Part shown: positions 6,001 to 24,300 of the stretch, in pieces
Layout of the letters: every line of letters starts with the position of its first letter
Numbering within the stretch: position 1 is the stretch's first letter
IMG/VR virus record: IMGVR_UViG_3300037851_000215
Coordinates: 30,219-94,218 of that record
Strand: one strand, 5' to 3'
Source: a virus
DNA length: 64,000 nucleotides
Notes under the pieces: generated by a model
The model's database searches: none
What the model was told of the DNA's origin: nothing
Seen by the model: the letters and a program-made list of their open reading frames with translations, nothing else
Position numbers and translations under genes: made by a program

Positions 6001-9000
6001 CAGGTGTGCTTTTATAATTTATAAATGCTTCTCCGAAATCAGATTGCGTTTTAGCAAACAATTCTTCATGTAAATCAGTAAGATTATAAAGTAAAATTCG
6101 TTTGTTTTTACCTTTTGATTTAGTAAGTTTAATTTCAATATCACGAATTTTATTTACTACTTGTGTTAATCTAGCATCATTTTGAATATAATTATTTAAT
6201 TCAGTATTTTGTTCTTTATATTGTTTTATTAAATTATTGTAATCTGTTAATATAGAAATAATAGTACTTACATTATGTTCTTGCGATAATACGTGAATTA
6301 AATCTTCTTTACTGTCTAATATTGCAGTTACTCTATTATTTAAATCATTTTCTGTAGTACCTGTTATATATTCAATAGTTGATATTTTATCAGATTTAAC
6401 ACCATCTATAGTTTCATATTTACGTTGTAAATTATACAACATACTGTATACAGTATCCATATCAAAGTCAGAACCTGTTTGAGTAATAAATTCATCAGGT
6501 AATACTATAGCAGGACTGTTACTATCTGGTAAAAAACCAACTACTTTAAAAACATACATACTATATTTAGCTTCAGTAGGAATACGATAACCTATCATAG
6601 TCCTTACTTTATCTGGTATAGTATTAATATCAACTAGTTCACCCTCTTTATAAAAATATTTACTCCATCTAGGAAGTAATACTTCTGCTTCAATTATTTT
6701 TACACCATTTTCATCAAATGTTATATTTGATCGTAATTTAAGATCATTGCGTGAAGTAATTTCATTATGCCAATTTATTCCAGTAGTATTTTCAAGTTCA
6801 GATTGTTTTACTCCTTTCTTTTTATTCATAAATACAGATGACATCTGAGCAGCATGAACTCCAGGAAATTTCTGATTTGTAACACCGTTTGTAATAATAC
6901 TTGTTAAAAGATTTTCAAATTTATTTACAAAAGGACTAAAGAAAATAGGAAGATTAGCATAACCATTATTACCTATATTTAATGAATATACTACGTTTTT
7001 AGGTAAACCTCTATTTATTGCTTCTTTCTGTAATACTTCTAATATCTTTTCATATTCTATTTCACCTACAATGTTACCATTATTATCAATACTAACATCA
7101 AATGGTAACATAGTCTTATTTGCACTATGCCATATATTATTATTAAGTAAATCAAAATATTGAGTTTTTAAATCTTTACCTAATGTTTCAACACCATTTA
7201 TATTATATTTAGTATTATCATTTATATTTAAAATAATTTTCTTTGCTATCTGTCGTCCTAATGTATTTACTTCTTCCAATATATGATCTGGAATTTCTAA
7301 TTGCATATGAAGTCCTTTGTAATTATAAGGACGTTTACCTAAAGTAAGTTCATTAATAATATCGTTATCATCTAGTAATTTACCTTTTTTATCTGTTACA
7401 GTACCTATATGTAATGAACCTACTTTTTCAGCACTTGCAAAATTAAGTTGTCCAATTCCAACCTGTTTCATTAATTTATTAATAGTAGAAAGATCTAGAT
7501 CTTTAATTAAATCAGGAGTTAATACTATTTCTGCATTTTTAATTTGAACAGGAACCATTTTCTGCAATTCATGTGAATATTCAAAATCATAAAAAAAATT
7601 CTTTTGAATAGCAGCAAATTTAGAAATTTCATCTCTATTTAAAGGTGCTTTATCTCTAACTTTGTCAATAATATCTTTATATGAATCATATAAACCAAAA
7701 CCTTTAATTCTATTTATAAATTCTTCAAAAGTTATTAAAGATACTGAGTCAGCACTATCATTTCTTAGATAAGGGGATGTTATATTATATATCTTTAATT
7801 CTATAGCAGATAACTTAGGTATATTATTATCTATCTCTTCATCAGTGTATACTTTATTAAGTTTATTTATACGATATGTAGTAGTACCATCTGGATCTAA
7901 TATCTGATGTGTCATACGTACTAATTCATTATATATTTTAGATTTTAAAACTACATCTGATACAGTACTAGCATAAAATACACCAGGATTACTGTTAGAA
8001 AGACCATTAGCCAATACTTCACCAGCACGTTTGTTTAAGTCGGTTTGTGATATATAATCGGCAATACTACCATGAAATAATCTAGTTTGTTCTATATTAA
8101 ATAGATATGTATTTAAAGCATATTCTAATATAAATGTATTATATGTTTTATTTTTTAATAATTTATTAAGATTATCACTATAAACTACATCTCTATTTTC
8201 ATTGCGTAAATAACTATTACTAATATAATCATAATATATGCCTAATTTAGAAATAGCTGTATTAGTTTGTTGCTGAATAAATCTAAGTACATAATTTTCT
8301 AATAAACTTTTAAAATTAGTACCATTCATATCACTAGATAGTGCAACAGCTAAACTAGGACTATTAAGTAAGTGTTCAGTAAATGATAAACCATTTAATT
8401 TAAAATCATTAAAGGTAGTCATTTTACCTTTATTTATAACACTCATATTTTGTAATGAAAATACATTACCACTATTAGCTAAATCAAGTTCTAATTCATT
8501 ATTTTCATTTAGTTTAAATGATAAATAATTCTTATTTTGATTTTCATCTAATTTATAATGATAATATTTTTGAGTAGATGTACTTACATCTGCAATATTA
8601 GATTTTAATTTAACTTTACCATCTTCTATTATAACACTACCATCTTCATTTAATTCAAATAGAATTTCTTTAGCAGTTTGCATTGCAATCATTTCATCAA
8701 TGACTACATTAAATAATGCTTTAAAAATAGGAGTATCTTTTATTTTATTTAATCTTTCTTCATTAGGTATATTAGCTGATAGAATACTATAAAAATTGTT
8801 ATTTAATTCAATAATAGGTACTTCAAACAACATAGTATGTTTTCTATCAGATGGATTAAGTAAAGGCATTATAGCAGTTTCTTTACCTACTATTTCCTTT
8901 TTACTATTATATTTATATCTACCACCTGCAAGATAATAAACTAAACTTTTAAGTGTCCAATCAAATCTAGCTAAATCTGAATATTCAGTACCTTTATTAT

Positions 9001-12000
9001 CATCACGATTTTTACTACCTTGATATACAAAATTCTTAAATATAGATAGATTATGTTTATTAATACTATTATATCCTAATGGTATTTTTTTACCTTTTTC
9101 TATAGTATAGTTTAATATACCACGACCTTGTTCAATTAAATTACTGTTATCTATACGATCCCCCCATAAAATAAGAGAATGCTGATTACTTGGAACAAGC
9201 GCATATTTAGAAAGAAAAGCAAATATAGATTCATCAGTACCATTACGTAGTTCTTCAAAGAAATTACTAATAAAGCTAGGATTTCTAGGATCGAATATTA
9301 AATTTCCTTTTGTATTAATAGAACTATGATTAAAATGATCTATTCTAAGAAATTTAACTACATCAGCTAATTCACGTAATCTACCAAATTGATTAAAAAC
9401 TAATTTATTGTTTTTATTATAAAGTTCAATAAATCCATTAGCTTCTTTAGCAAATGGATCACTTTTAATATAAAGAAGTGGATTTAATAGTTTATTTATT
9501 ATATTATTACGATTAAGATTATATTGATGCATTATAGTATCAACATCTATCTCAATACCTATTTTATCAAATAACATAGATAACTGTTCAGCAGTTTGAT
9601 CAGTTATAACTGTAAAATTACGAGTTTGTACAAATAATGCTTTATATGCATCATTCCATTCTTTAATCCAAGTATCATTAAATATATTGTTTTCAGCTCT
9701 ACTTATAATAGTTCCAATCCATTTATTAGCAGTAACATATGAAAATGAATTTCTATTACCACTATCTAAATCGATCTCATTACCTAAATAAGTAGTTCTA
9801 TTTAAATCTATATATGAGTCAATAATAGCTTTATCATATTGAGTAAACCATGTATTAAGTAAATCTGGATCACTTTTAAGTTTTTGCCAAACTTGTAATA
9901 ATGATTTACCTATTGGATGTTTACTATTAGATGCAAAATTAAATAGAATATCTAACATTTCTTGCTTATTTAAAGCAGTACTCATTAAATCTCTAATTTT
10001 ACCATCTAATTCATTATAATTAAGATAGTTAGCAAACCCTGTTGGAGTTTCAATATTTGATTTAAATATATAATTACCTTGATTATCTATAGTAATATTA
10101 TTAGGATCAATCTCAGGAGTAGTATTAATTAAATTTTTAATTCTATCACTAACTGTTAAAATAGGATGTTGTGAAATAGCTTGATTTTCATCCCAACTTT
10201 TAGATAGATATTCTACTTCATCTTGATAATCATCTATTTCATGAATATTATATCCATTATTTTGAGAAAGTTGAACTTTAAATAATTTCCAAAATGCATC
10301 ATTATTTCTAACTTCATCACGAAGTTTAAATAATAATTCTTTTTGTGAATTAGAAAGTTGTCCTAATTCAGCCGCTTTACGACCTTTTCTACCTATATTA
10401 GCAAGTATATCTTGACGTATTTTATTCTCAGCAATATCTTTTACTTTAAGATTTTTATATTCATTACTAATTTCAATAAAAGCAGCTGTCATTAAACTAA
10501 TAACATTTCTTTCTTCTTCTTCAGAGAAATTAGAACCTGTTTGTTCAGTATTAAGTGTAGAAAGATAAGAAGAAAATTTAATAGTTTGTAAATCACGTTC
10601 TTCATTAATTTCTACTTCCCACCAATCATTTTCATATTCATCAGTAATACGTTGTGCATTATATAGCTTTTTAAGAATATTACCTATACGATTTTCATAA
10701 AATGCTTCAATAGGTTTGAGTTTTTCTATACCTTGTGATTTTAAGTCTTGTTTTTCTTTTATTTTATTTTCTAATATATATTTAACGTTTTCATTATATA
10801 ATTCAAAAGCTTCATTTTTAATAGTGTTATATCTATTATCAAATTCATTTTTAGTTATTTCTAACCCAGATTTATAATATTTATCACCTTTAACACTATG
10901 TGTTTTATAATAATGTTCTGTTAATCCATCTTCATTACTATCAAATTTATTAGGATTTTGTAAAGTTGGAAATTTATCAATAGTGGCCTTATCGTTTTGT
11001 AATAATTCAATTTCTTTATCAATTCTTCTTATCTCATCAGCAATAGTTCCATGTCCTTCAATCTTAGCAGCAGTTTCACCAGTAGGAAATACAACTTTTT
11101 TAAATTCACGTAAAGCACTATCTTGAACTATAGTTTTAATAAAGAAATTTATCCAATTACTTTCTTTATTAAGAAGTTGAAGAAATTGATTTTTAGATAT
11201 ATCTTGTTCAGTTAATACTGCATATTTATTAAAACTTTTAACAGCTTGTCCTGTATCAAAATATCTTCCTGCTTGTTCATTTGAAATAGGTTTTAATACA
11301 GAATGATATTTACTTGTACCGATAAAATTATCATCTTCATCATAATCATCAGTAATTTCTTGTTCAATTGTTTCTAAAAACCATTTTTCTTCATTTGTTT
11401 TAATTAAACGATCTCCATCAGATTCTCTTAAATCAAATATTTCTTCAGCTACTATTCCTGTTAGTATATCAATATCTCTAGTTTTCTGAAATTCAGATTG
11501 AACTTCAAGAATACGTCTAATATTAATAGTTTGTTGTACTCTTTCAGTATTTAATTCAAATTCTTTATCATATTCTTCTTTAGTAATTTCTTTTCCATCT
11601 TTAGTAAATTTTGATGTATTATTAACAACATCTATATCTATATTAATATTAGATATTGTTTCAGATCTAATATCACTTCTAAACCATCCTATGCTATTAG
11701 TAGGAATACCTCTTCCACCAGGATCTTGTGTAAAAGCAGCATGAGATTGCATAATAGGAACTATTTCAGGTGTTCTAATATCATATTCACGATAATTAGT
11801 TCCACCTGGAGCAGTTAAATTTTCATAATCAGCAGAAGGTAAGCTACCAACATGAGCAATTAATCCACCAGCACCATCATATTCTCTATCACTATAATCA
11901 AATCGTTTTCCTAAATTAACTTCAATAGAATAAGAAAGTGAACTAGATAAATTTAAAATAAGTTCATCTAAATTAACATCCTTAGTATTACTTTGTAGAT

Positions 12001-12271
12001 TAAATAATTGTTTATAACTACTAAATCCACCTATTTCATTTAATGTTTTCTCAATAGTCCAATTATTTTTAGCACCTTTACTAAATATTTCTTTAGCTCT
12101 ATCAGAACTAAGTAAATCAATTACTTTTAATCCTGCATTAATTGTATATTGATCTAAAGCAGGAGTACTAGTAAAAGATGAAAATTTATTCTGTGATTGT
12201 TGTTTTAAATAACTTTTTAATTCATTCATTGAATTAAAACGCATTCCCTTATATGTAGGTACACAAGCCAT
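1..12271 (-). CDS. Giant virion-packaged DNA-dependent RNA polymerase polyprotein (>=4090 aa, 3' end outside window)
   Basis: Absent from ORF track. ATG at 12271 (MACVPTYKGMRFNSMNELK...). Every stretch I translated by hand is open in this frame, down to the window edge (...ETKKDYLRDFILSLPLNQQ), and the track calls no minus-strand sub-ORF here, implying no internal stop. Beta'-like MIGYRIPTEAKYS and catalytic TQTGSDFDMD (DFDMD at 6455-6469); beta-like segment IQKNFF...PVQIKNAE. Confidence 0.93.
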   Translation of the reverse strand, partial: MACVPTYKGMRFNSMNELKSYLKQQSQNKFSSFTSTPALDQYTINAGLKVIDLLSSDRAKEIFSKGAKNNWTIEKTLNEIGGFSSYKQLFNLQSNTKDVNLDELILNLSSSLSYSIEVNLGKRFDYSDREYDGAGGLIAHVGSLPSADYENLTAPGGTNYREYDIRTPEIVPIMQSHAAFTQDPGGRGIPTNSIGWFRSDIRSETISNINIDIDVVNNTSKFTKDGKEITKEEYDKEFELNTERVQQTINIRRILEVQSEFQKTRDIDILTGIVAEEIFDLRESDGDRLIKTNEEKWFLETIEQEITDDYDEDDNFIGTSKYHSVLKPISNEQAGRYFDTGQAVKSFNKYAVLTEQDISKNQFLQLLNKESNWINFFIKTIVQDSALREFKKVVFPTGETAAKIEGHGTIADEIRRIDKEIELLQNDKATIDKFPTLQNPNKFDSNEDGLTEHYYKTHSVKGDKYYKSGLEITKNEFDNRYNTIKNEAFELYNENVKYILENKIKEKQDLKSQGIEKLKPIEAFYENRIGNILKKLYNAQRITDEYENDWWEVEINEERDLQTIKFSSYLSTLNTEQTGSNFSEEEERNVISLMTAAFIEISNEYKNLKVKDIAENKIRQDILANIGRKGRKAAELGQLSNSQKELLFKLRDEVRNNDAFWKLFKVQLSQNNGYNIHEIDDYQDEVEYLSKSWDENQAISQHPILTVSDRIKNLINTTPEIDPNNITIDNQGNYIFKSNIETPTGFANYLNYNELDGKIRDLMSTALNKQEMLDILFNFASNSKHPIGKSLLQVWQKLKSDPDLLNTWFTQYDKAIIDSYIDLNRTTYLGNEIDLDSGNRNSFSYVTANKWIGTIISRAENNIFNDTWIKEWNDAYKALFVQTRNFTVITDQTAEQLSMLFDKIGIEIDVDTIMHQYNLNRNNIINKLLNPLLYIKSDPFAKEANGFIELYNKNNKLVFNQFGRLRELADVVKFLRIDHFNHSSINTKGNLIFDPRNPSFISNFFEELRNGTDESIFAFLSKYALVPSNQHSLILWGDRIDNSNLIEQGRGILNYTIEKGKKIPLGYNSINKHNLSIFKNFVYQGSKNRDDNKGTEYSDLARFDWTLKSLVYYLAGGRYKYNSKKEIVGKETAIMPLLNPSDRKHTMLFEVPIIELNNNFYSILSANIPNEERLNKIKDTPIFKALFNVVIDEMIAMQTAKEILFELNEDGSVIIEDGKVKLKSNIADVSTSTQKYYHYKLDENQNKNYLSFKLNENNELELDLANSGNVFSLQNMSVINKGKMTTFNDFKLNGLSFTEHLLNSPSLAVALSSDMNGTNFKSLLENYVLRFIQQQTNTAISKLGIYYDYISNSYLRNENRDVVYSDNLNKLLKNKTYNTFILEYALNTYLFNIEQTRLFHGSIADYISQTDLNKRAGEVLANGLSNSNPGVFYASTVSDVVLKSKIYNELVRMTHQILDPDGTTTYRINKLNKVYTDEEIDNNIPKLSAIELKIYNITSPYLRNDSADSVSLITFEEFINRIKGFGLYDSYKDIIDKVRDKAPLNRDEISKFAAIQKNFFYDFEYSHELQKMVPVQIKNAEIVLTPDLIKDLDLSTINKLMKQVGIGQLNFASAEKVGSLHIGTVTDKKGKLLDDNDIINELTLGKRPYNYKGLHMQLEIPDHILEEVNTLGRQIAKKIILNINDNTKYNINGVETLGKDLKTQYFDLLNNNIWHSANKTMLPFDVSIDNNGNIVGEIEYEKILEVLQKEAINRGLPKNVVYSLNIGNNGYANLPIFFSPFVNKFENLLTSIITNGVTNQKFPGVHAAQMSSVFMNKKKGVKQSELENTTGINWHNEITSRNDLKLRSNITFDENGVKIIEAEVLLPRWSKYFYKEGELVDINTIPDKVRTMIGYRIPTEAKYSMYVFKVVGFLPDSNSPAIVLPDEFITQTGSDFDMDTVYSMLYNLQRKYETIDGVKSDKISTIEYITGTTENDLNNRVTAILDSKEDLIHVLSQEHNVSTIISILTDYNNLIKQYKEQNTELNNYIQNDARLTQVVNKIRDIEIKLTKSKGKNKRILLYNLTDLHEELFAKTQSDFGEAFINYKSTPEYIALKNKVKAIIENWSISAQNTKRARENQIVDIYYSILTNPAHFLETIFTSSFDDIQKINSKINKVLFPFSKNSNILTFAGQQEYRDKSQQSVNLKGTTISIDRFNAIAQIARITLANNIDRNSPFIGTVLDTLPIIEYEITNEIDKKELIKNYKQDVRFETRNNKEYAIVTHRYLTNNPANTFVNVLGKHIDTYSAQITANVLDAGRKPLPNNVNEYTLPIWKLLVSIGSTYDVSTTLINQPIVRELSEFFFDNLHTIQRGREISIIKTKYQTILYKLINKRTGKSVQSWDNEISKGKNIFIPYSDEAQSYLYGILGYKNNTPINIEFNRLFDNLNTTTAEEIDAILKSDNADKARLEQLEQHIRYQLQLLETFKVYKHYAQTITDAVNIFNTDSIGAGPTFTTTNSLEYSINRFAERGLLDVGTTNAAVAIYPKYFGINKESVYPILEQFLTFSNLLSLKAFSNYFLSETDVVKYIKSEIFNYINQVKYDKQLSNRINKYLTTAAIKDLPWLNTMNTTEKHRILGINTDVNLKVNTRDLTNISAFEELSAANQIKLLLDQRNYNSNHILNYLDTKLLITDIERNGYHLINLIPNDIPNAMTESFTTLWYSDDIYERVLARNLVKYEYLTSGFTFGFNSYSKLLPVSIFSNSTEAFIEGTDNEKGINLSSHLESKLRIATANKLTLAKENEINELIASLFGIDYFDMILRTNWRNNLLVPDGGVIKEAQFTKIRDFQGDEVNIQLPLFRPNNNGIISIPANKWNDINTSRAWNNVRKAKFIKLQIREKDKVEWIVFKQVIDYVNIDENDQITGTYYYYPVPKLNENEVESKSIFPNNNQLPDGTVIASDEIYRELISKMREKDIISENVYPNDLAMNMSIKDGKFRDELKEYTTTLDLVRAGHRTATTRHGNEAKKWEKLKIGQFVRLQGTSEYIQITRTPHKIDLSTLAARKEWSAKEGWDISYIHDNHLDAANDLQQFEYKYIGTIDKLLDNAVANDNASGIEEEIDINTKGTHYTWSRYSTKSYEVSSAGDKRFSAFYAILNPGAQLEQLHDTTGQLSTLTHKMSIEEYYQVSVKGYLSIKEGKGKPALGNITREQQWNAYLNAWREWAKQNPELIRELSINARNKVLTDKFATSNINQARALAEILNELYPDNPQLSIKFSSYTSSPVQSVNNAINTADQLIKRIYGNLPNLIRINTANKQAKELFDMLKGLGLEREITEIGLANFATALTATLQYASNVLLSKPDNKFKGGLLIRLDEYENANMTDIINDPIKRKEFTGFMSKALSFLKGWVHIKELTSVDGDNFIEEERIINNLIKELQNLSTKIDNANNKFNKLLESYYEAELLNYTSNPEILDGLRKIFEVADDESYVQLWLDALSDTNNAFVANLVKKFSIAMNKGKREGNVDIVEFENLLIAKLGKPLTAITEADFIKYLEIKNGKRTGKLVQKYNWEQYYTDKANRFRYLTKTYGKGTPSYINGALAWFRDNEITAVSDEEVQKVISQKQEELIEYEFNEWKKRNFIKKGDKTYVRMGDSMFKTPSDKYINPEWKAIKDDPIYSKLTEIISKYTDYFGRKTILNDGFIPTMSAFDKENMSISEKLEAWYESHAANKKSDSFVGMNDELVYILGIPMVQFLGREEEIKFRDRRFNETLEDYEKDVLNDIRQAGRGSFNSLAEVRDKNKKIRAENIELNAKRINYNLYEVFSNFIREANIYKAKMGMKFDIDASLHRLRQMDFNKRNSKNELLKNKLAGRTLDKTVIGTKKGQGTNLEKHLAEWIEAIYYGNFDIDEGTFTKIAKIMIKYSSAKNMWFNITAGVNNIVFGKIQNQLESVAGWYFNNADLTKADKMYIAAIPDMINTLGKLKSGTLTNALIKYFDITQNTNEKDYTSGMLKKDLLSTNSMYFMNDIGEHYLQNTTLFAMLNQHRIINGKIVSLAKYKYNNYRQALNEILSDIQKERLNNYISNRFRDEEFKETKKDYLRDFILSLPLNQQ
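2495..2512 (-). repeat. 18-bp direct repeat copy encoding IKFSSY (identical copy at 10565-10582)
   Basis: Plus-strand ataagaagaaaatttaat at both positions, same reading frame of the RNAP gene. Confidence 0.85.
10565..10582 (-). repeat. 18-bp direct repeat copy encoding IKFSSY (identical copy at 2495-2512)
   Basis: Plus-strand ataagaagaaaatttaat; a related NKFSSF peptide lies at 12173-12190. Confidence 0.85.
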
Positions 12272-12283
12272 TATAATTGGAGT

Positions 12284-12466
12284 TTAAAGTTGAGTATAAA
12301 TATTAGATAATTCTTTATGTAAATCGTTTATTCGTTCTTGTAATACTAATTCAAGTGCATCTTCTTCATTTTTACCTTGTTCAATTAATTTATTTACATC
12401 AATTATTAACAATGTTTTATCATCATTAGATAATGTACTACTATTAATTTTATCTATGACAGACAT
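12284..12466 (-). CDS. Hypothetical helical protein (60 aa)
   Basis: ORF track; overlaps upstream gene and ends 12 nt before the RNAP start. Confidence 0.7.
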   Translation of the reverse strand: MSVIDKINSSTLSNDDKTLLIIDVNKLIEQGKNEEDALELVLQERINDLHKELSNIYTQL

Positions 12467-12687
12467 ATCAAAAATGATTTAATTACCATCAATAATTCTT
12501 GTTCATCTTTTAATCCTATAAGTTTTAATGTAACAGTTTCTTCAGAACCATAATAAGGTATTTTATGTTTTCTAATTGTTCGTCTAGAATCAGCTATAAT
12601 TAAATCTACAGTCCAATATCCATTTGTAGCAACAGAAGTTTTTTCTGCACTCCAATATCCTTCTGTTGCTATTTCTAATGTGTTCAT
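12454..12687 (-). CDS. Hypothetical protein (77 aa), duplicated (I/V)AT(E/N)GYW motif
   Basis: ORF track; ATGA overlap with upstream gene; IATEGYW / VATNGYW internal repeat. Confidence 0.75.
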   Translation of the reverse strand: MNTLEIATEGYWSAEKTSVATNGYWTVDLIIADSRRTIRKHKIPYYGSEETVTLKLIGLKDEQELLMVIKSFLICLS

Positions 12688-13235
12688 AGTCTAGTAACTA
12701 CAGTAGATGTAGCATCACTTTCTATATCTAATGTAATATTATCAGTAGTTCGTTTACCTGTAACTTTATCAACGGTCATAGGATTACCTGATACTAGTCC
12801 TTGTAGTTCATGAAGTTCACTTAATTTAGTAGCTTGTTCTGGTGTAAGTCCACCACCACCACCATCAGATGAAAAAGATATTGCTTGTACTGGCTGTTGA
12901 TAATTAATTCTAACTACCCAACTACCTACTGTATTAACAAATGGATCTCCACCACCTTCAACTAGTAAAATACCGTCTATTATATTTAAGGTATGATTTG
13001 CTTCTTGTGGTCGTATTTTCCAATCATTTATTAAAAATGCATATATAGGTATTTTAGTTCCAGTAGATGGATCGATATCATTTCCACCTACTTGTGTTAA
13101 AGCAAGTGGATATTTAGAATTATCACTAGTTAAAAACCAATCAACCCATCTACTCCAAAGATCTCTAACACTTACTGTAGTAGTACCAGAAGTAAGAGTT
13201 ATAATCTTAGTTGAACCATCTATCGAATATGCCAT
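12684..13235 (-). CDS. Putative virion appendage protein (183 aa)
   Basis: ORF track; beta-rich N-terminal domain (MAYSIDGSTKIITL...RDLWSRWVDW), poly-Gly linker, short C-terminal domain. Confidence 0.55.
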   Translation of the reverse strand: MAYSIDGSTKIITLTSGTTTVSVRDLWSRWVDWFLTSDNSKYPLALTQVGGNDIDPSTGTKIPIYAFLINDWKIRPQEANHTLNIIDGILLVEGGGDPFVNTVGSWVVRINYQQPVQAISFSSDGGGGGLTPEQATKLSELHELQGLVSGNPMTVDKVTGKRTTDNITLDIESDATSTVVTRL

Positions 13236-13237
13236 AA

Positions 13238-14911
13238 TTAAACAATATATGCTCTATCTGTTTCTGCCGTAAGTGTTATAATAATACCTTTACTTTGACT
13301 TATAACACCAGTTGCTACTACTGGTTTAGCACTACCTGCATTACCAGCAATAACTGTTACAGGAGCATCTTCTCCTTCTGAACCAGCTCCTCTTTGATCA
13401 TTATTAGTATAATCATATGTAAAGCTAATAGATCCTGCGGTTATAGTACCTACAATTGGATTACCATCTTTATCATTTACGGTTATAGCATTACCTGTAC
13501 CATAATCATAACCTAAATTACTACCAGCATCATCATTAGTAAAGTACATTCTATAATAACCTGTACCACCTGAAGTAAGAGCAGCATTAAAATTAAGTGT
13601 ACCAGCAGATGCATATGGATATTCTCTAGTAGCAGCACTATTATCATAAAATACAATACTGTTCAAATCAGCATCTTGTATGCCTTGTATTAATACACCA
13701 CTACCACCACCAGCTGGGTTTGTAGGTATGTAATAACCACATTTAAGTGAAGGACCAACAAAGTTTAAAAGAAGAGATGCAGTTGTACCAATAACACTTG
13801 TACCACCAGATACAGCATTTATATTACCTGTCTGACGTAGTTGATATTGAATTTTAGTATATATTTCTTTAAGGGTGGCTGTAACAGGAGTTGCTCTTTG
13901 ACAAGTAAAAGATAAATTAGAACCTGATGAAATTGTACCAGTAACTGTTATAGTAGTAGCAGTATTACTAACAATAGGAAATGAAACACCTGCGTCAGTA
14001 CCTTCGTAAATAGTAAGAACACCGCCATTGTATGCACCAACTGTCATACCACCTGTTGCAGATGTTAATATAGAACCAGCACCAGGAGCTGAACCATCTA
14101 TACCAGAATGTGTACCTACATCTATAACTATACCAAAGTTTCTACCTGTTGCACTTTCTATTGTACGAGTAAATGAACCAGAGAAATATTTAATATTTAT
14201 TTCAGTATATGGTGATATAGTAGCTACATTAGCATCGGTATTTGTAATATCCAAATCAGCACCAACTGCAATAGGTAATGCAACTTTAAAAGCACCTGTA
14301 CTAGTTTCACCTACATCTGTCAGAATAGCATCATCATATAAATAACTTTCTTCTCTACAAAACAATTTAAAATAAGTTCTATTATCAAAATTACCATTAG
14401 ATGCATCACCATATACCTGTATTGCTTCATTTGGAGCATCATCATATGTAAAATTATATGCTGAACCACCAGAAGCTCTTTGATAATAAAATTGTGCTCC
14501 ACTAGGAAAACCAGATGCAAGAGCAACCATACCTACATATTGTCTATTTAATACTCCAGCAACAGAATATTCACTCCATCCAGCATCTCGTATCATTTGT
14601 CTACAAACATCATCATTTGGTTTCCATCCATTATATGTACCACCAGGATCTTGTCCAAATATATACTGACCTGATCTAGCATCAAGTACGTTCATTGGAA
14701 AAGGATAAGGTTGATATGTAGCAGTAGTCCATAGATCAATAAATTTTGCCCATAATGCATTACCAGTAACACCATCTTTTGCTACTAGACTACCATACGG
14801 AGCAAGATCAAATGTCTTACTAGAAACATCTAACCATATATTTCCATCTACACCTAAATTTCCAGCTGACGAACTAACGATCAGATCATCTGGATCAATA
14901 ATTTTAGCCAT
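13238..14911 (-). CDS. Putative virion structural/filament protein (557 aa)
   Basis: ORF track; G/T/S/A-rich beta-type composition; starts MAKIIDPDDL, ends ETDRAYIV. Confidence 0.55.
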   Translation of the reverse strand: MAKIIDPDDLIVSSSAGNLGVDGNIWLDVSSKTFDLAPYGSLVAKDGVTGNALWAKFIDLWTTATYQPYPFPMNVLDARSGQYIFGQDPGGTYNGWKPNDDVCRQMIRDAGWSEYSVAGVLNRQYVGMVALASGFPSGAQFYYQRASGGSAYNFTYDDAPNEAIQVYGDASNGNFDNRTYFKLFCREESYLYDDAILTDVGETSTGAFKVALPIAVGADLDITNTDANVATISPYTEINIKYFSGSFTRTIESATGRNFGIVIDVGTHSGIDGSAPGAGSILTSATGGMTVGAYNGGVLTIYEGTDAGVSFPIVSNTATTITVTGTISSGSNLSFTCQRATPVTATLKEIYTKIQYQLRQTGNINAVSGGTSVIGTTASLLLNFVGPSLKCGYYIPTNPAGGGSGVLIQGIQDADLNSIVFYDNSAATREYPYASAGTLNFNAALTSGGTGYYRMYFTNDDAGSNLGYDYGTGNAITVNDKDGNPIVGTITAGSISFTYDYTNNDQRGAGSEGEDAPVTVIAGNAGSAKPVVATGVISQSKGIIITLTAETDRAYIV

Positions 14912-14935
14912 ATTTCTTTTATGTTTATATTGTTA

Positions 14936-17209
14936 TTAATTTATATAATATCTATCTACAACTTGTGCTATTGGAATACTTGTATTACTAGCAGTTAAAA
15001 GATAATTTCTAATATAGTAAGGATTGTATCCTGCTTTGAATATTCCTATATCTATATAAGTAGATGCTGCATATTGATAATTATATTCATATGTAGTACC
15101 ACTATTACTTTGGGTATTTTCTAATTCAGTAGTAGTTCCTGCTTCTAATATAGATATATCACTACCATCGACAAGTCCAGTTAGTGTTAAAATAACTGGA
15201 TTTTCAACAGTAACTGTAGCACCAGCTGTTCTTATTGATGGAGTAGATCCACCACTAATTGTTATTGTCATTGAACCAGAAGCAATATTAATATATATTG
15301 CTTCATTACCAGTTGATCCATCTGTTGCGGCATATCCACTAAAATCAAGACCTGTTAAAACTATATCTGCTGCTGTACCACCAATTTCCATAGCATGACC
15401 AGTACCAGCAGAAATAAAATTACTATTTGTAATATTTTCAGCATCAGCTGGAGAAGCAATTGTTATTTTAGAATTATCAAACATACAATCATCTAAAACA
15501 GCTGAATTTAAAGTAAACATAGGACAATCTATAAAAGACATAGAGCTTAATTCAACTGAACTACGTAATGTGACTGTAGCATTAACAACCGATGTACCAG
15601 CAAAATCTAAATCTGCACTTGCACTATGACTTGCATTAAATCTCCAATAGTAAGGGCTTTCTGATGTAAATACACAATTTGTAAAAGCAAGACTATCGCC
15701 AGATAAACCATAAAATTCATAACCCATATGATTATTATCTACATGGAAATCAAGATTAGTTGTCTCATTAGCTTTTTTAGGATACTGAAATACGTTTAGA
15801 TTACAGCCTATAAAAGTTGCATCTGCACCGCCAAACTTAATCCTTGTCCATAACATACCAGTAGAACCAGCTACTTGAATAAGTGGTATATCAGAACTTC
15901 CTTTATTAATTGCAGTTACAAGATCATCAAAATTAAGCGGGTTAGATGATGTTCCACCAAGTATCTGCGATTCATTAAGTAACCATAATTGAGAAAAATC
16001 TAATTGTGTAGCACCATAATATCCTTGTGCTGCAAAATAAATATCATTTATAGCATTGTAAGCTATTGTACCACTAGTTGCATAACTAGTATCACTGCTC
16101 CCATTAACCTGTATTGCGAAGTTCTGCATATCCCAAGGTTTAGTAGTCTTTGCAAGCTGAGCACCAATAGTCCAAAATTTATAATCATTATCTGCATCTG
16201 CTATACCAATAAGAACTCCACCAGTAGAAGATATACCAGAATCAAGATAATCTCTAGGACTTGTATATTGCCACATACCAAATAACACACCACTACCAGC
16301 AGTAAAATCTTCTGCTGAGGTAAATGTTAATTCCTGTCCATATAAAACAGTTGTAGAAGAAGTAGCATTAAATCTTAATACACCATGAAAAGGATTATAT
16401 CCAACGTCAGCACTATTTGTTGTATATGCAACATAAGTTAAAGTTTTTGCTCCTACAGTAGTTATATCAAGTGGAGCTACTGTTTTTAATGCTCCTCTAT
16501 TAACAGTAGAAACGTTATTATTTAAAACAGATAAAAGAGTTGCAGGAAGATTACTATTACTTACATAAGGTGAAACGGCTGTATTATTACCATCATCTTT
16601 TATTGTAATAACTAATGCTCTTGTATCATCTGCTATTGTTCCAGCAAAGAATGACGGAACATATATAGCACCTGCTGTTTTTTTAAAGTCATACCCAACA
16701 ACTATTGAGTTAGCTCCTGTATCACCACCAAATAATTGTATTATTCCAGGTAAAGCAAAAGTACCATATACAGCATCACCACCAAGACAGTGTATAACTA
16801 ATTCATTGTTTTGAGTAGTTGTAGCAGACATACCTGTAAATGGAAGAGAACTATCATCAGAACCAGTTGCAGCTGCTTGATCTATCGCATCAGAACCATC
16901 AGTTGTAGAACCATCCCAATACTGTCCACGTATAGAAATTACTACACCTATACAAGTTTCACTTGTTAATGTAAAAGTAACTGTTTCAGAACTTGATGCA
17001 GCTCGTTTAGTATAAATACCAGTAGCATGTCCTGCTCCTAGAATAGTAGTAGCAGCAGACCATCCAGCAGGAGTTGTAAAAGCACTAGCTGTATCTTTAT
17101 TTAAACAAGCTACAAGTAAATCACCTGCTTCATGAACAGGCATATTCATTACCATATTTGCTGTAGCAACAGTATAAATAGTAGTAGCGTGATCTATAAT
17201 TCTTGCCAT
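14936..17209 (-). CDS. Putative fibre/adhesin protein with beta-helix-like region (757 aa)
   Basis: ORF track; N-terminal GDLLVA...TPAGW module, FTNCVF/FIDC/DDCMF beta-helix-like repeats, ends VDRYYIN. Confidence 0.55.
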   Translation of the reverse strand: MARIIDHATTIYTVATANMVMNMPVHEAGDLLVACLNKDTASAFTTPAGWSAATTILGAGHATGIYTKRAASSSETVTFTLTSETCIGVVISIRGQYWDGSTTDGSDAIDQAAATGSDDSSLPFTGMSATTTQNNELVIHCLGGDAVYGTFALPGIIQLFGGDTGANSIVVGYDFKKTAGAIYVPSFFAGTIADDTRALVITIKDDGNNTAVSPYVSNSNLPATLLSVLNNNVSTVNRGALKTVAPLDITTVGAKTLTYVAYTTNSADVGYNPFHGVLRFNATSSTTVLYGQELTFTSAEDFTAGSGVLFGMWQYTSPRDYLDSGISSTGGVLIGIADADNDYKFWTIGAQLAKTTKPWDMQNFAIQVNGSSDTSYATSGTIAYNAINDIYFAAQGYYGATQLDFSQLWLLNESQILGGTSSNPLNFDDLVTAINKGSSDIPLIQVAGSTGMLWTRIKFGGADATFIGCNLNVFQYPKKANETTNLDFHVDNNHMGYEFYGLSGDSLAFTNCVFTSESPYYWRFNASHSASADLDFAGTSVVNATVTLRSSVELSSMSFIDCPMFTLNSAVLDDCMFDNSKITIASPADAENITNSNFISAGTGHAMEIGGTAADIVLTGLDFSGYAATDGSTGNEAIYINIASGSMTITISGGSTPSIRTAGATVTVENPVILTLTGLVDGSDISILEAGTTTELENTQSNSGTTYEYNYQYAASTYIDIGIFKAGYNPYYIRNYLLTASNTSIPIAQVVDRYYIN

Positions 17210-17211
17210 AA

Positions 17212-17847
17212 TTAATCTGTTAAATAACTTATACCACCATAATGACCAAGTTTAATATTTCTATTGATCCAAATATCTCCACCTATCTTTCTCCATCTCA
17301 TACCAAAAGCAGCATCTTCATGTACAAGTAATTTATTTTCATTATCTATATAAGGTGAATAATAATCATGTATAAGTATTCTATTAGGCCCATGTATTAA
17401 AGTAGTAACTTTATTAAGTTTTTCAAATACTGATTTTTTAATTAAATTAAAACCAGCACCAACATAATTTACTTTAGTTATTGGTTCATCTGTTGTTTCT
17501 TCACATGGATTAACACAAAGTTCAACTTTTTGCCATTTTTTTAATCTATAAGGAGCAGCTGCAAATTCAACATCCATATCTAATAATACTAAAACATCTT
17601 TTGGACGAAATTGTATATCTGCATCAATACAAAGTAAATGAGTATAACCTAAATCTAAAAAACTAGCAGCAATATGATTTCTTGTTGATGGAATAAATGA
17701 TTCATTAGATGGAGTTATTATATCACAAGCTATATTTTTTTTAGTTAACAGTTTAGATAAAGAAAACAGAGAACTAGCTGTATAACTATGCATTTGTGCT
17801 CCATAACAAGGAACAGCTACTAATATACCTATTTTAGAATAATCCAT
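17212..17847 (-). CDS. GT-A fold glycosyltransferase-like protein (211 aa)
   Basis: ILVAVPCY start, RN motif, THLLCIDADI (DxD), VGAGFNLIKK, HEDAAF, LGHYG. Confidence 0.8.
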   Translation of the reverse strand: MDYSKIGILVAVPCYGAQMHSYTASSLFSLSKLLTKKNIACDIITPSNESFIPSTRNHIAASFLDLGYTHLLCIDADIQFRPKDVLVLLDMDVEFAAAPYRLKKWQKVELCVNPCEETTDEPITKVNYVGAGFNLIKKSVFEKLNKVTTLIHGPNRILIHDYYSPYIDNENKLLVHEDAAFGMRWRKIGGDIWINRNIKLGHYGGISYLTD

Positions 17848-17850
17848 ATC

Positions 17851-18342
17851 TTATTTATTCTGTTTAGCAATAATAGTTTTCATATTACCATTATTATCTC
17901 TAATAATGTCAAAAGACCAACTATTTAATTTATTTAAACTTGTATTTATACTTTTTAATTCATCTTTAAGAGATGAATTTTTAATTGCACTTTCTATTGC
18001 AAGTAATTCTTTTGAATTATTAATTTTAGATATAGTTAATAAATTATTATCAATCTTAGTTAAAACATCTGTATAATCAGTAGTTTTAATTTTTAAATTT
18101 ATATCACTAATTAAAATAGATAATATATCAATTAATGATTTAACTTCATCTAATTTATTGTTAATAACAATAGGTTGTTGTTTTAATTTGATATCAGTAC
18201 TTAAAACATTAGTAGTACTTGTTAAATTAGATAATGCTTCAGTTAATTTATCTAATAAATCTAGTAATACATTATCTTTTTGATTAGAAGATAAAGCAAT
18301 AATATCACGAAGTTCTTCTAATATTATCTTATATTCATCCAT
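17851..18342 (-). CDS. Coiled-coil protein with C-terminal beta-hairpin-like tail (163 aa)
   Basis: ORF track; L/I/N heptad-like pattern ending SWSFDIIRDNNGNMKTIIAK. Confidence 0.7.
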   Translation of the reverse strand: MDEYKIILEELRDIIALSSNQKDNVLLDLLDKLTEALSNLTSTTNVLSTDIKLKQQPIVINNKLDEVKSLIDILSILISDINLKIKTTDYTDVLTKIDNNLLTISKINNSKELLAIESAIKNSSLKDELKSINTSLNKLNSWSFDIIRDNNGNMKTIIAKQNK

Positions 18343-18343
18343 A

Positions 18344-21300
18344 TTATAATAATGAATTAAAATCTTTTATTTTACCTCTAAATAATCTTTGTGCATCAGA
18401 TGCTCTCATTTTACCAGCAGATGTATTAACTATTTTATTTCTACTTTTAGTAGGTATAACAAAATTATCTGATCTAAATTTATTAGTTTTTCCATAGCAA
18501 GGTTCACCTGTTTTATCATCAACAAAAGTAACATCATTTAAATCTATCGGTTCTTGTAAATTATTTGCAGATGGAATATTACTACTAAAAACAGCAAGTT
18601 TTTCACTTATATCAATATCACTATCACCAAAATCCCAATCATCTTCTGTAAGTCCTATATCAGAAACTACTCCAGTATAATGTTGTTCTGTAATAAATTG
18701 TTCAAATATAGTATTTAATTCATCTAATTTAGTACCAGTAATACCAAAAGCATTAGCTAATTCTCGTATTATTTCTTTTAATCTTGTCCAAAAACTAACA
18801 GTAACGTTATCTTTTTCTGTTTTAACTGTATCTAAAAACTTAGCAAAATCAACATCAGTAAGACCATATGTTAATATTTCTTCAACATCTTTATCATTAA
18901 TAATAGCTAATAATTTATTATCAATTTCTGTTTTATCTGGTTTAGAAACTAATGCTTTATATTGTTCTGTATTTTTTAATTCATCTCTAAATGTAGTAAG
19001 TGCATTTAATAATTCAGTACGTGCTTCAATTGATTTACTACCAATTAAACTATGTAGTATTTCATGTACTAATATAAGTGTAGCACTAGTAGGATTGTTT
19101 TTATACGCTTCTACCCACTTTTCATTTACAGATATAGATTTATCAGCAACATTATACCAAGCATATCTATTACTATATTGACCAGTAACAATACCATTAA
19201 ATTTAACATTGTCCGATATAACTAATTGATCTAAAATTGCTAATATAAAATCATATCTACTATCTAATTTAAACGTATTACTAAATTCTCTAAAAGTAGA
19301 AGTTTTTGTATTACTATCTAAATTACTTGTGTCAATATTTATTGCTAATGGTAACCCCCCTTTATTATTGACAGCAGTAGGCATAAAGTTACTAATCTTA
19401 TTACCATCTTTGTCAGTAACCATTCCTACATCAGTAACTATAACATTTGTATTGATTAAATATTCACTATAACTATTGTAAGTATTACCTAAAATATCAG
19501 TATATTTATTACCACTAAAGTTTTTATATTTAACAGTACGAGTTAATTTACCTAATTCTTTAGTAAATTGAGCTAAATCAATATTCTTTTCAACTAATAA
19601 ATCAGTTCCATTTTTACGTTCAATTCTATTATATTTAATAGAATTTTCATAAAAATTATATATAATAACTTGTTCTCTGCCTTGTTCATCAATAGTTATA
19701 AATCTAGCATCCTTATATGATAAATTTAAAATATTCTTTCTAGCAATACCATCATGATAAATTGTAAATATTTCTTCTATTTTTTCGTATATTGATGTAG
19801 CAATAGTATGATTTATTTCAACAGAATCTGTTTTATCAACTCTAATTTTACCATATTCCTGAATCAATCTAACTACTTCAGTTAATAATGCATTACCATC
19901 AGGAGAAGATAATAAATTACCATTTAATGTATTTAAATAAATTGGAACAGGAATAGTTGTATCTCTTCCTTCAACTCCTACATATAAACTATGAGTATAT
20001 TTAGGTTTAATAGAAACATGTGTATCATTAGGATCAGATACATTTTCTATAATTTTATTATGTGATTTAGTATCTAATTTATATAATTTAACTTTACCAG
20101 GAGAATTAATAATAGATAAATTATTAAATACCTTATTACCATTCTTATCCAATGCAATAATAACTGATCCACTAGTAATATGTGAAATAGTAGAAGAAAT
20201 AGTTACATCAGGATTAGCAGCAATGACTTTACGTATTTTCTTTACATTAATATGATCTCTATATAATTTATCTTTCCAATTATATACATTTTGTAAAACA
20301 TTCTGTTTATTAAATTCAATAGGTGCTGTACCTGTATCACTTTGTCCATAAAATAAAACATTACATATATGCATTAATGCTTTATTTCCAGCTGTACTTC
20401 TAGGATTAATATCACCTAATAAATCAAATATAATTCCAAAACTATCTTCTTTAAGTAATACTTCAAGTTGTTTATTAGCTTCAGTTATTGTATCAAATTT
20501 ATTACTATTATACCAACTTTGAATATGTGGAAACAATCGACTTAATAAATCGAGCCTAATATTTGTATTCTTTATATCTCTACTTAATTTATCAATCCAA
20601 TCGGTACCATCAAAACTATATCTTATTCCATGATGTATAGTGTTCGTTGTAGGGATTGCTGAAATGTTAGTAATACCATCTTTACTTTTTACACCTACAG
20701 ATATAGGAATTAAATCTGGATTATTTTTATTTTGGCTGAACTCCTGTTGCGTTGAATATTCAGAATTGACCTGCACTATTACTGGTGAATTTTTATCCAA
20801 CTGATTTAAAAGAAGTTTAAGTAAATCAGCATCTTCATTTGAAGACACCATTATATTACCATTTTCAAGAATAGTATAATTTACTTCTCTACCACTAAAA
20901 ACAAAAGTATTGAGACTATTAATTCCACCTGTTTCATTTATGTAATCTATATTATTAAATTCATATTCTTTATTAATGTTTTCAATACCAAATTCATGAA
21001 TAATATCATCTGCTGAAATATTATCTACATATTTACGTGTATTATATGTTCTTGTAGTTTTCGTTTCAGGATTAACAGTTGCATTACTTATTATTTCATA
21101 TGCATCTTTTAAATCATTATAATACTCTCTAAATACTTCAGCACCTACTAACTTAGCAAATTTTGCAGCAATAGATTTAAATTTAAAAAATGTATTTTTA
21201 GGTTTACCATTATGATCAAATTCATTAAATAATGGATCACCATTTGTACTATCATTTATAATACCAGTAATCCATTTATTAGCTCTTTCAACTTTAAGGG

Positions 21301-24300
21301 GAGTGAGTGGATTTTGTGCAGTAAAATCAATAGCTGGTTTAGTATTATCATCTGAATTAACAGCTCTAAATCCAGCAGCATTATTAATATGTTCTGAAAC
21401 AACTGCTTTATTTGCATCTTCTAATGTAATATCAGCAATATAACCACTAAGTAATAATATTTCATTAATTAATTCTTCTAACTTATTAAATTTAGAAAAA
21501 TAATTAAATACAGCAGTTAAATCTTTTTTAATATTCTGTTTAGCTACATCACTTAATTCATTTCCTTGCATAATAGCAAGTAATGTATTATAAATATTGT
21601 CTGTACCAGCAGCAGCTTTACGTAATTCATTTTCAACTAATGCTATAATACGTTCATCACGTTTACCTGTATATTTAACAGGTTCTGTGCTTAATTCATT
21701 AGTTTTAAAGATATCACTTAGTTTATCTACTATTTCTTGATTACTAGTTGCAATAGATTCACTAACTGATTTTTGTGAAAGTCGCCTATTCTTTTCTTCA
21801 ATTAAAAATTGTTTAGTATTAGTTAAAGAAGATGTATATAATTCAATACGACTATTATCTAACTTAGCTAAAGGATCATTAGCTTCAGCAAATGGATCGA
21901 TTTTAGTTTCTTTAATAGACTTAATATAATCGTCTATTTTTGCAATTTTAGCATCAATAGTTTCAGCAGTATCTTTATTTTCTTTATCTAATTTAATTTC
22001 AGCATTAATCTTGTCTTTAAACTGCCTAAATTGATATTCTTGTCTATCATTCTTTTCTTTTTTAAGTTGTTTTTCAACAATAGGAATACTTTTATCAGTA
22101 TTTAATAATTCTTCGTACTTAGTATTATCAGCTTGAATAAATATTTCAAATAACTTAGCATCAACTTCTTTATCAATTATATCAGAAATAGAATTAAAAT
22201 CACCAAGTGCTTCGTTATCTCCTAACTCTTTTCTCTTAGCTTTAATATCATTTTTAATTTCTTCAGCTCTAGTTTCTAATACTTTTCTTCTAGTTTCGTT
22301 ATTTTCAGAACTAATATATGTATCAATAAAAGAAATAACTCTACTATTTACAATATTTTCTAATGTACCATCTAAATCTTTATCTTTATTCTGTTCCTTA
22401 AGAGTATCATATGCAGGATTATTATTTTTTAGTTTACTTATTTCAGTTTTAATATTAGCATATGTTTTCTTATAATGATTAATATCATTTTTAATAGAAA
22501 CTGCTTTACCTAGAATAGCTTCTCTTATCCAAGGTTTAGTAACAGTACTATTAAATATTTTACCATAAACTTGTTTATATGTAGTTTCAGCATCTAATAC
22601 ATGTTGAGTTAAATCAGCTAATGTAGTGTCAAATGTATTTTCATCTGTAATTCCTAGTTCAATCAATTTAGTTTTAAATTCAGGATGTTTAAGCATATCA
22701 AGTAATAAATCAATATTACCATGTCTACTTGCATTTAAACCTAAACTATAACCTAATGATTGAAGTTCTTTTTTACTAAGATTATTTATTGCATTTGCTA
22801 TCTCAACATCATTGCCTTGTAACTTAGTTCCATTATTTGGATTTATACCATTATTAATTAAATCTAATTTACGTTTAGATTCAGCTATAATTAAAAATCT
22901 ATTTTTAATTTCTTCTACTTTTGCATCAGCACTATATGGATTTTTTTCATCAAATAACATTTCTTTAGCTGATCTATACAATCTAGTACCACCACTAAAT
23001 GTAACACCACCTAAAAATCCCCAAAATGCTTGTTCCCATGAAGAAGGATCATTTAAATATTCATTTAATCTATCTTTAAAATCACTATCTTTTTCTTTAC
23101 CTAATAAATATTTACCATACCAATTAGCATCACTTTGTGAAATAGCATTTATAAGTTCTTCTGCACCTTCACTGACTTGTTCACCGATAAATATAGAACT
23201 CCCCTTTAAAAAAGAAAGTGCTGCCACATTAGATTTAGCTGCGGCTCTAACTGCTGATTTACCAGTAGCTCCTAATTCTTGTTTAACAGGAGTTAATAAA
23301 TTAGCTTGATATGCAGTAGCTTTTCCAGATTGTAAACCAGCTCTAGTAATAACTTTGTTAGGTTTGAATATAGGAGCTAATTGCATCATATCAAATACAA
23401 GATTAACAGCATTCATTCCATAATTCTTCCATGCTGCTTTACTTGCAATAAATTCAGCTAAACCTGTTTTAGTAGCCGTTTTATGTTCTTTGATATATTC
23501 TTGTCCAATTTCAGAAGAAAGTAGTTTATTATATTCATTATCATCTGAAATAGTTTCTAATACTTCATTTCTAATAGTATTAAAAGATTGACTACTTTCT
23601 CTCATGTTCTCAGCATTACGCATAGCAAGAGAAGAAGTCATTAATTGTTGCCAATATCTTTCAGTATCAGTTATATCAGAAGCAATACCTAATCCTTTTC
23701 TAATAGCTTTTGTTTTACTAGCTTCAGAAAGTGTTTTTAATAATTTACTAAAATAACCAGTTGCTTTACTAGCACCTAATGCAGGAATAAACAAACCTGC
23801 TGTACTAAATACACTTACAAAATTACCAGTCCACCAACCTAAATCTTTCCAATCAAATGCTTTGTCTGGATTATATCTAAAAATAGGATTAGTTTCTTTT
23901 AATTCTTCACTTATATTATCTGCTAATTTAGTAAAAAAGTTATTAAAATCAGCATCTTTATTAAAAATCTCTTCAAACAAACTAACAGGTAATTCTAATA
24001 AACTACCAGCACCACCAATAAATCCTTGAGCTAATATTTCACCTACTCCACCCTGTACAAACATATTACCAATCTTACTACCAGCAGATTGATTAGCAGC
24101 AGCTTGTCTTTCTAAATTAACATTAGGATAAATTTCATTGATAAATTTTCTATATTTATCAATATTTTCAAAATTGTATCCAACTAAACTTTCTTGAATA
24201 GTAGGTTTAGCAACAACATCATATCCTAATGCCGTATTTATAGATTTAGGTGCTTCTTTAGAACCAGATAAAGCAAGTGATAGATCAATGGATTTATTAA

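Follow-up and report, generated by a model that had tools for sequence, protein, structure and literature searches.

To our knowledge, the horn of cyanophage Syn5 has no known function and has stood as a curiosity for close to two decades. Two proteins of this phage, gp53 and gp54, are reportedly the horn proteins, and antibodies to them are said to have no neutralizing effect on infectivity. In the literature searched, no relatives of the horn have been described. The horn is assembled onto the particle after the tail (PMC4238041), and a third protein, gp55, has been assigned to knob densities on the Syn5 hexons by secondary-structure matching only, without a built model (Gipson et al. 2014, PMC4102127). 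The crAss-like phage crAss001 carries head fibres composed of a gp21 trimer and a gp29 dimer (Bayfield et al. 2023, PMC10172136). Here we describe a seven-gene cassette, encoding homologues of Syn5 gp53, gp54 and gp55, in a stretch of viral DNA of 64,000 nucleotides (hereafter the window) that forms the right-hand 64 kb of the 94,218-bp IMG/VR record IMGVR_UViG_3300037851_000215 and belongs to a crAss-like phage. Judging from its sequence, the cassette is best explained as a horizontally acquired copy of a mobile gp53-gp54-gp55 module, and by analogy with Syn5 we consider it rather probable that its products form an accessory, horn-type structure on the outside of the crAss-like virion.

The cassette consists of seven open reading frames (ORFs) on the minus strand at 12284-18342, with coordinates and sizes in amino acids (aa) exactly as given in an earlier note on this DNA, which had read them as an acquired appendage module. 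The features are as follows (HMM, hidden Markov model).

17851..18342, minus strand: 163-aa L/I/N-rich helical protein, candidate first gene of the transferred block (motif and weak HMM match)

17212..17847, minus strand: 211-aa GT-A-like glycosyltransferase candidate, phrog_1574 (profile and structure matches)

14936..17209, minus strand: 757-aa gp54-like protein, with a beta-rich body (aa 1-664) and a C-terminal domain (hhalign)

14936-15199, minus strand: module-specific C-terminal domain of the 757-aa protein, aa ~671-757 (hhalign to Syn5 gp54)

13238..14911, minus strand: 557-aa gp53-like protein, the module marker (hhalign, tblastn)

12684..13235, minus strand: 183-aa gp55-like protein (hhalign)

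12454..12687, minus strand: 77-aa small ORF, analogous by position only; shares 4 nt with the end of the gp55-like gene

12284..12466, minus strand: 60-aa small ORF, an orphan without homologue, putatively coding

10733..18691, minus strand: stretch without counterpart in the nearest relative, L019 (junction comparison)

Profile comparison with hhalign related the 557-aa family to Syn5 gp53 over the full length (residues 1-446; probability 100%, E 5e-109), the 183-aa family to gp55 (99.5%, E 4e-23) and the 757-aa family, over its last 81 residues only, to gp54 (95%, E 3.6e-8). These matches are reciprocal, with tblastn values for the 557-aa protein and gp53 of 1e-26 and 1e-32. When phage genomes were searched by tblastn with the 557-aa protein, six records were retrieved, including Syn5 gene 53 and a 39.6-kb phage from Manatee Spring (69% identity). 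Genes neighboring the gp53 homologue match the C-terminus of the 757-aa protein in Syn5, MW202577, Rctr197k and Maribacter phage Panino, and the 183-aa protein in the first three of these. The three genes (hereafter the trio) are adjacent and co-oriented in the window. No homologue of Syn5 gp56, gp57 or gp58 was found in the window or in ~110 fetched trio loci. The interpretation in the earlier note, which had not recognized the relationship to Syn5, is supported in part.

The linkage of the three genes extends well beyond these records. At E<=1e-3, the gp53-like family comprises 591 representative clusters among 1.84 billion proteins, and a profile scan yielded 548 confirmed gp53-like loci. 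Among the best 80 of these 548, from which the neighborhood counts derive, a gp54-type domain adjoins the gp53-like gene in 69 and a gp55-like gene does so in 72, most of the exceptions being cut by contig ends; the order gp54-like, gp53-like, gp55-like is kept in all 13 close IMG/VR loci. The earlier note had staked its reading on such co-occurrence of homologues, and the counts bear it out. gp55 therefore accompanies the horn genes and not the gene of the experimentally located knob protein, gp58, which calls the published knob assignment of gp55 into question. Were that assignment correct, the trio might instead encode decoration or cement proteins of the capsid lattice, and not a single filament; crAss001 does bear head fibres on its lattice (PMC10172136). 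We consider this quite improbable, as the assignment comes without a model, gp58 never occurs in the loci where gp55-like genes are so regular a partner, and a decoration protein must fit one lattice, yet the module moves among T7-like, crAss-like and other phage types.

The window can be placed in Crassvirales by its major capsid protein (44.7% identical to that of cr127_1, Crevaviridae), by portal and terminase matches to PHROG families and by the presence of the giant virion RNA polymerase (RNAP) array. Matches to crAss genes identify the ORFs flanking the cassette as the crAss 'RNAP-associated zincin', a cargo protein of 1988 aa (18344-24310), on one side and, on the other, the crAss-type virion RNA polymerase, an ORF of more than 4090 aa (2-12271) that is open at the window edge. 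As had been noted earlier, the cassette genes are tightly coupled, with junctions between a 13-nt overlap and a 24-nt gap, and no promoter or terminator is evident: sigma-70-like sites are below chance (24, against 44.7 +/- 7.4 in shuffled sequences), and the two terminator-like hairpins (1.7 by chance) are both intragenic.

The nearest relatives in IMG/VR are only two, the 92-kb records L019 and L020, whose cargo proteins and RNA polymerase share 41-47% identity with those of the window; a metagenome scan for closer relatives of this phage found none. In both records the counterparts of the zincin cargo and RNA polymerase genes make up a single ORF, of more than 5221 aa in L019 (9908-25570) and more than 5338 aa in L020 (9842-25855). 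In L019 the match to the 1988-aa protein runs to residue 1873 and the very next base begins the match to RNA polymerase residue 514, so that the stretch lacking a counterpart is 10733-18691: the C-terminal 115 aa of the 1988-aa protein, all seven ORFs and the N-terminal 513 aa of the RNA polymerase ORF. The L020 junction is the same except for a 172-aa linker, an insert different from that of the window. In cr127_1 the two genes are separate and lie 3 nt apart, without the cassette. The earlier claim that these cargo genes are normally adjacent is thus true of all three relatives, and by sequence comparison the cassette is an insertion relative to every relative found. That N-terminal piece of the RNA polymerase ORF (10733-12271) is likewise unmatched in all three relatives, L019, L020 and cr127_1, and gave no tblastn hit across 50,697 phage genomes, and none of the three trio genes occurs in any crAss-like record of that collection. 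No flanking repeats or insertion signature were found at the cassette, only short imperfect matches in AT-rich DNA. The borders of the window linker carry the sequences LAVFSSN (~18600), NKFSSF and IKFSSY (among 10565-10582 and 12173-12190), and those at the L019 and L020 junctions carry PIISF/PVSYS and PIVSF/SISYSS. These short border motifs are candidate processing sites of a cargo/RNA polymerase polyprotein, and the insertion point, which falls in the linker separating two such putative motifs, hints at a place where new genes are tolerated by crAss-like phages.

The location of the cassette among genes for ejected proteins could mean an internal or ejection role: its products would be packaged with the cargo proteins and, as the earlier note had offered as an alternative, deployed with the ejectosome. 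Position inside the cargo/RNA polymerase array is the sole support for this in the window; elsewhere, the trio of L005, L007 and L010 adjoins genes for large proteins with weak internal-virion or DNA-pilot matches. The cargo proteins of crAss001 are alpha-helical and must unfold for passage through the tail (PMC10172136), whereas the 557-aa protein is confidently predicted to be an all-beta, multidomain protein. The Syn5 homologues, moreover, are reportedly external, and in other records (L012, L006) the trio adjoins portal and capsid-protease genes. An ejected role is, in our estimation, very improbable indeed.

Outside the window, the module was found in phages of other types. There are no crAss genes within 7 kb of the trio in the best 80 loci, and no crAss-type capsid protein in ten trio records checked whole. 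The GC content of the carriers ranges from 25% to 68%, and the cultured carriers Syn5 and Panino are podoviruses, as are crAss-like phages (PMC11590407). A syntenic block was found in L007 (IMGVR_UViG_3300037307_000169; the same as L026/L101), an uncultured 64.9-kb record of ~60% GC that is rated complete. Like the window, L007 encodes a helical protein (134 aa, further upstream), a glycosyltransferase-family protein (GT) directly upstream of its 757-type gene, 557- and 183-type proteins and a small ORF. The order of the genes is equal, and identity to the window is 57% for the GT, 73% over the full length for the 757-type, 71% for the 557-type and 69% for the 183-type protein. Unlike the window, L007 is not crAss-like and has no match to the window capsid protein, and its GC content at third codon positions (GC3) is 0.81, against 0.08. 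It also has an amidase-like 152-aa gene (L007:4579-5037) between the helical protein and the GT, and a Cys-rich 109-aa ORF with a signal-like N-terminus (L007:9634-9963) between the gp53-like and gp55-like genes. Because L007 holds matching genes in equal order, five, and perhaps six, of the seven genes appear to have arrived as one block. This synteny with an unrelated phage, together with the missing cassette at the junction in L019, L020 and cr127_1, bears out the earlier view of an acquired module.

GC content is raised at 13-17 kb (0.33-0.35), which might be taken as a sign of foreign DNA or recent transfer. This was ruled out: the GC3 of the cassette genes (0.06-0.12) equals that of the rest of the phage, whereas their homologues in L005 and L007 have a GC3 of 0.81-0.83. 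The same raised GC, a reflection of amino-acid composition, is seen in other genes of the phage for beta-rich structural proteins. As the cassette copies show the extreme codon bias of the host phage, the transfer was not recent.

The proteins of the trio were also compared at the level of structure. The AlphaFold2 (AF2) model of the 557-aa protein has a predicted local distance difference test score (pLDDT) of 93.8 and a predicted template modeling score (pTM) of 0.86. No solved structure matches the whole model, and fold matches are at the domain level only. An insert at residues 266-342, missing from Syn5 gp53 according to hhalign, resembles the beta-sandwiches of Dit and tail-tip proteins (8gtc_P: Z 8.8, root-mean-square deviation 2.3, 75 residues aligned), and residues 432-554 resemble transthyretin/CnaB domains (Z 7-8.8). 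Among the Foldseek matches of the model, Gram-positive pilin shafts rank first, with a template modeling (TM) score of only 0.15. The same model (m601791e81995) matches the predicted Syn5 gp54 in BFVD (A4ZRD5; E 5.5e-6, TM score on the query 0.26). Comparison of the gp53-like and gp54-like sequence profiles gave no similarity; the two may, on the strength of the models, be distant structural paralogues. The N-terminal domains of the gp53-like and gp55-like proteins align weakly (E 0.004, probability 8.7%).

In the 183-aa protein, a conserved N-terminal domain of ~120 aa is followed by a linker rich in Gly and then by a variable tail. The AF2 model of its monomer is poor, with a pLDDT of 57.7, and neither Foldseek nor VIA-align matched it to a known fold. 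A relationship to the T4 gp9/gp10 N-terminal domain (PF07880) was considered, but the hint stayed below threshold: the score was 15 bits against a cut-off of 25, three of 13 family members matched, the best with an E of 0.018, the profile had no PDB match, and the fold search with the poor model reached a Z of 2.6 at best. One gp55-like protein (L005:9635-10789, 384 aa) carries an extra domain of ~200 aa after the Gly-rich linker.

In the 757-aa family, conservation across all 13 aligned homologues is confined to the last ~85 residues, and the body (aa 1-664) is not homologous to Syn5 gp54. A stand-alone protein of 826 aa on a metagenome contig of 60% GC (L116:6338-8818) is 57% identical to residues 1-664 and lacks both the gp54-type C-terminal domain and gp53- or gp55-like neighbors. 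The 757-aa protein is thus, as far as such alignments tell, a mosaic of a swappable body and a module-specific C-terminal domain. Pfam, PDB sequence and Atlas searches with this protein gave no usable match; CBM_35_2 was weakly detected in two gp54-like homologues. The N-terminal 75-90 aa are found again, at 38-44% identity, in small proteins encoded by N4-like and jumbo phages of Rhizobium, and one such N4-like phage protein is annotated as a minor tail protein. In the Rhizobium phage RHph_N38 (Schitoviridae; L100:5926-6570), the next protein has a carboxypeptidase-regulatory-like domain.

Several of these properties would suit a second set of tail fibres or spikes, of receptor-binding or depolymerase type, on the crAss-like tail, which would widen or change the host range. 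The cassette proteins are beta-rich and fibre-like, with the G/T/S/A richness noticed earlier (G+T+S+A of 41% in the 557-aa, 41% in the 757-aa and 34% in the 183-aa protein); the beta-sandwich domains of the 557-aa protein resemble those of Dit, tail-tip and tailspike proteins (Z 5.8-8.8); and the exchangeable 757-aa body, the minor tail annotation of its N-terminal relative and the weak CBM_35_2 matches point the same way. We nevertheless regard a tail-fibre set as unlikely. In Syn5 the homologues reportedly localize to the horn, and antibodies to them are said to be non-neutralizing. Identity above 70% between phages of 25% and 60% GC hosts is unlike that of receptor binders, the conservation of the gp54-like C-terminus and not the N-terminus reverses the usual logic of fibres, and elsewhere the trio adjoins portal, protease and internal-virion genes, not tail genes. 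This phage keeps a separate beta-rich gene set at 33-45 kb; paralogy of the cassette with these genes found no support, as BLASTP gave no match between them at E<=0.01.

A horn-type appendage remains the reading we prefer, because it accords with the homology to Syn5, the obligate linkage of three genes and their high conservation between hosts of 25% and 60% GC. The 557-aa (gp53-like) and 757-aa (gp54-like) proteins would form the appendage and the 183-aa (gp55-like) protein would be their third obligate partner; assembly would take place late, onto the filled capsid. The conserved C-terminal domain and swappable body of the gp54-like proteins suggest a docking piece joined to an exchangeable tip; in the window, the 85-aa C-terminal domain of the 757-aa protein would be the module-specific docking piece and its 660-aa body the exchangeable working end. 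The appendage would not be the primary receptor binder. A role as host-specific binder is improbable, because the proteins keep 71-73% identity across genomes whose GC3 is 0.08 in one case and 0.81-0.83 in others, the carriers span 25-68% GC and the phage has its separate set at 33-45 kb. The suggestion in the earlier note of an extra filament on the virion gains from the homology of the core genes to the Syn5 horn proteins, which fits it, while the appendage itself is here deduced from that homology. A fuller picture can be drawn, in which gp53-like subunits would stack head to tail, a gp55-like protein would form the base and a swappable gp54-like tip, docked by its conserved C-terminal domain, would be the cap. 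This host-independent filament, glycosylated by the linked transferase, would serve adhesion to particles, mucus or non-host surfaces and not infection. The pilin-like top matches, the weak N-terminal similarity and the shared [DE]-R-x-Y ends are weakly compatible with a head-to-tail filament; as a whole, we put this picture forward as possible but doubtful.

A number of observations weigh against a horn-type appendage. The localization data come from Syn5, a T7-like phage, and are carried over by analogy; the homology to gp54 spans 81 residues only; and gp55 has been placed in a capsid knob, not in the horn (PMC4102127). The cassette stands among genes for ejected proteins, domains of the 557-aa model resemble tail-type beta-sandwiches, and the N-terminus of the 757-aa protein recurs in an N4-like phage protein with a minor tail annotation. 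The cassette proteins also show no visible adaptation to a crAss capsid and resemble, from end to end, those of a non-crAss phage, which leaves the attachment site unexplained.

The 211-aa protein matches phrog_1574 at E 1e-23 and no Pfam family at threshold; Anp1 was matched in three of its six homologues (best E 0.013). A profile of the six homologues retrieved the GT-A glycosyltransferase A197 of Sulfolobus turreted icosahedral virus (STIV; 2c0n) with an E of 0.03. In this alignment D75-A-D77, corresponding to the metal- and nucleotide-sugar-binding DxD motif of the GT-A fold, lies opposite the D-E-D region of A197. D75, D77, E177, D178 and H202 are invariant in the six homologues. The Atlas model (pLDDT 0.89) has a TM score of 0.93 to viral clusters labelled Anp1 or nucleotide-diphospho-sugar transferase, and among its neighbors at that score Glycos_transf_2 is found on only 33% of members. 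The designation as a glycosyltransferase made in the earlier note is, on the match to 2c0n, the Atlas score and the invariant DxD, moderately supported, though without a Pfam match at threshold. A GT-family gene adjoins the trio in only one other record, L007; more distant GT relatives are not beside horn genes, which makes the GT an accessory confined to a single sub-lineage. The linked enzyme would probably glycosylate a Ser/Thr-rich protein of the module or another virion protein.

Upstream of the GT, the gene of the 163-aa protein, a putative coiled coil in the earlier note (L+I+N 42%), begins a single nucleotide past the stop codon of the 1988-aa gene. In L005, L007, L016 and L012, the equivalent position upstream of the module is taken by helical proteins of 102-145 aa, which have in common with the 163-aa protein a C-terminal motif, W-x-[FL]-x-I-x-RD-x-x-G. 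An HMM of these four proteins ranked the 163-aa ORF first of 355 six-frame ORFs in the window, with an E of only 0.06, a weak match. At the position of the 77-aa ORF, most trio loci have an ORF of 54-109 aa with a C-terminal helix of the D-[DE]-x-E-L-L-x-I type; similarity of the 77-aa ORF to these small ORFs downstream of gp55-like genes was not significant (five-member HMM, E 3.8, rank 3). No homologue of the 60-aa ORF was found in ~115 loci, PHROGs or Pfam.

Our data extend the horn genes of Syn5 to a widespread module that has now entered Crassvirales and that crosses phage orders and 25-68% GC at about 70% protein identity. This order-crossing spread with retained identity argues for a function independent of host receptors. 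If the trio does form a horn filament, the module would be an accessory that tailed phages of different orders have in common. Many more systems are now on offer in which the horn-type appendage can be sought, and the window adds to them a crAss-like carrier, the association with a putative glycosyltransferase and an apparent division of a giant polyprotein gene in two.

Among known systems, the nearest to the 211-aa enzyme is A197 of STIV (PDB 2c0n), which likewise has ~200 aa, an aligned DxD region and a context of viral structural genes; the match between them reaches only E 0.03. The head fibres of crAss001 resemble the proposed appendage as accessory structures on a crAss-type capsid, but they are encoded in the head gene block and bound across the whole lattice (PMC10172136), and no sequence relationship between them and the cassette proteins was detected. 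The comparison with Syn5 (Autographiviridae, Voetvirus) is the closest. The window has the gene order 54-53-55, the commoner one in metagenomes, whereas Syn5 has 53-54-55; the 757-aa body is unrelated to gp54; residues 266-342 of the gp53-like protein form an additional beta-sandwich insert; the module comes with a glycosyltransferase candidate and a helical protein and without gp56-gp58; and it lies in the cargo/RNA polymerase locus of a crAss-like phage and not, as in Syn5, before the terminase gene. Both phages are podoviruses in which the three genes lie side by side, in one orientation, within the late structural operon, and the window, like Syn5, encodes a full-length gp53 homologue, a gp55 homologue and a gp54-type C-terminal domain carried on a large beta-rich protein.

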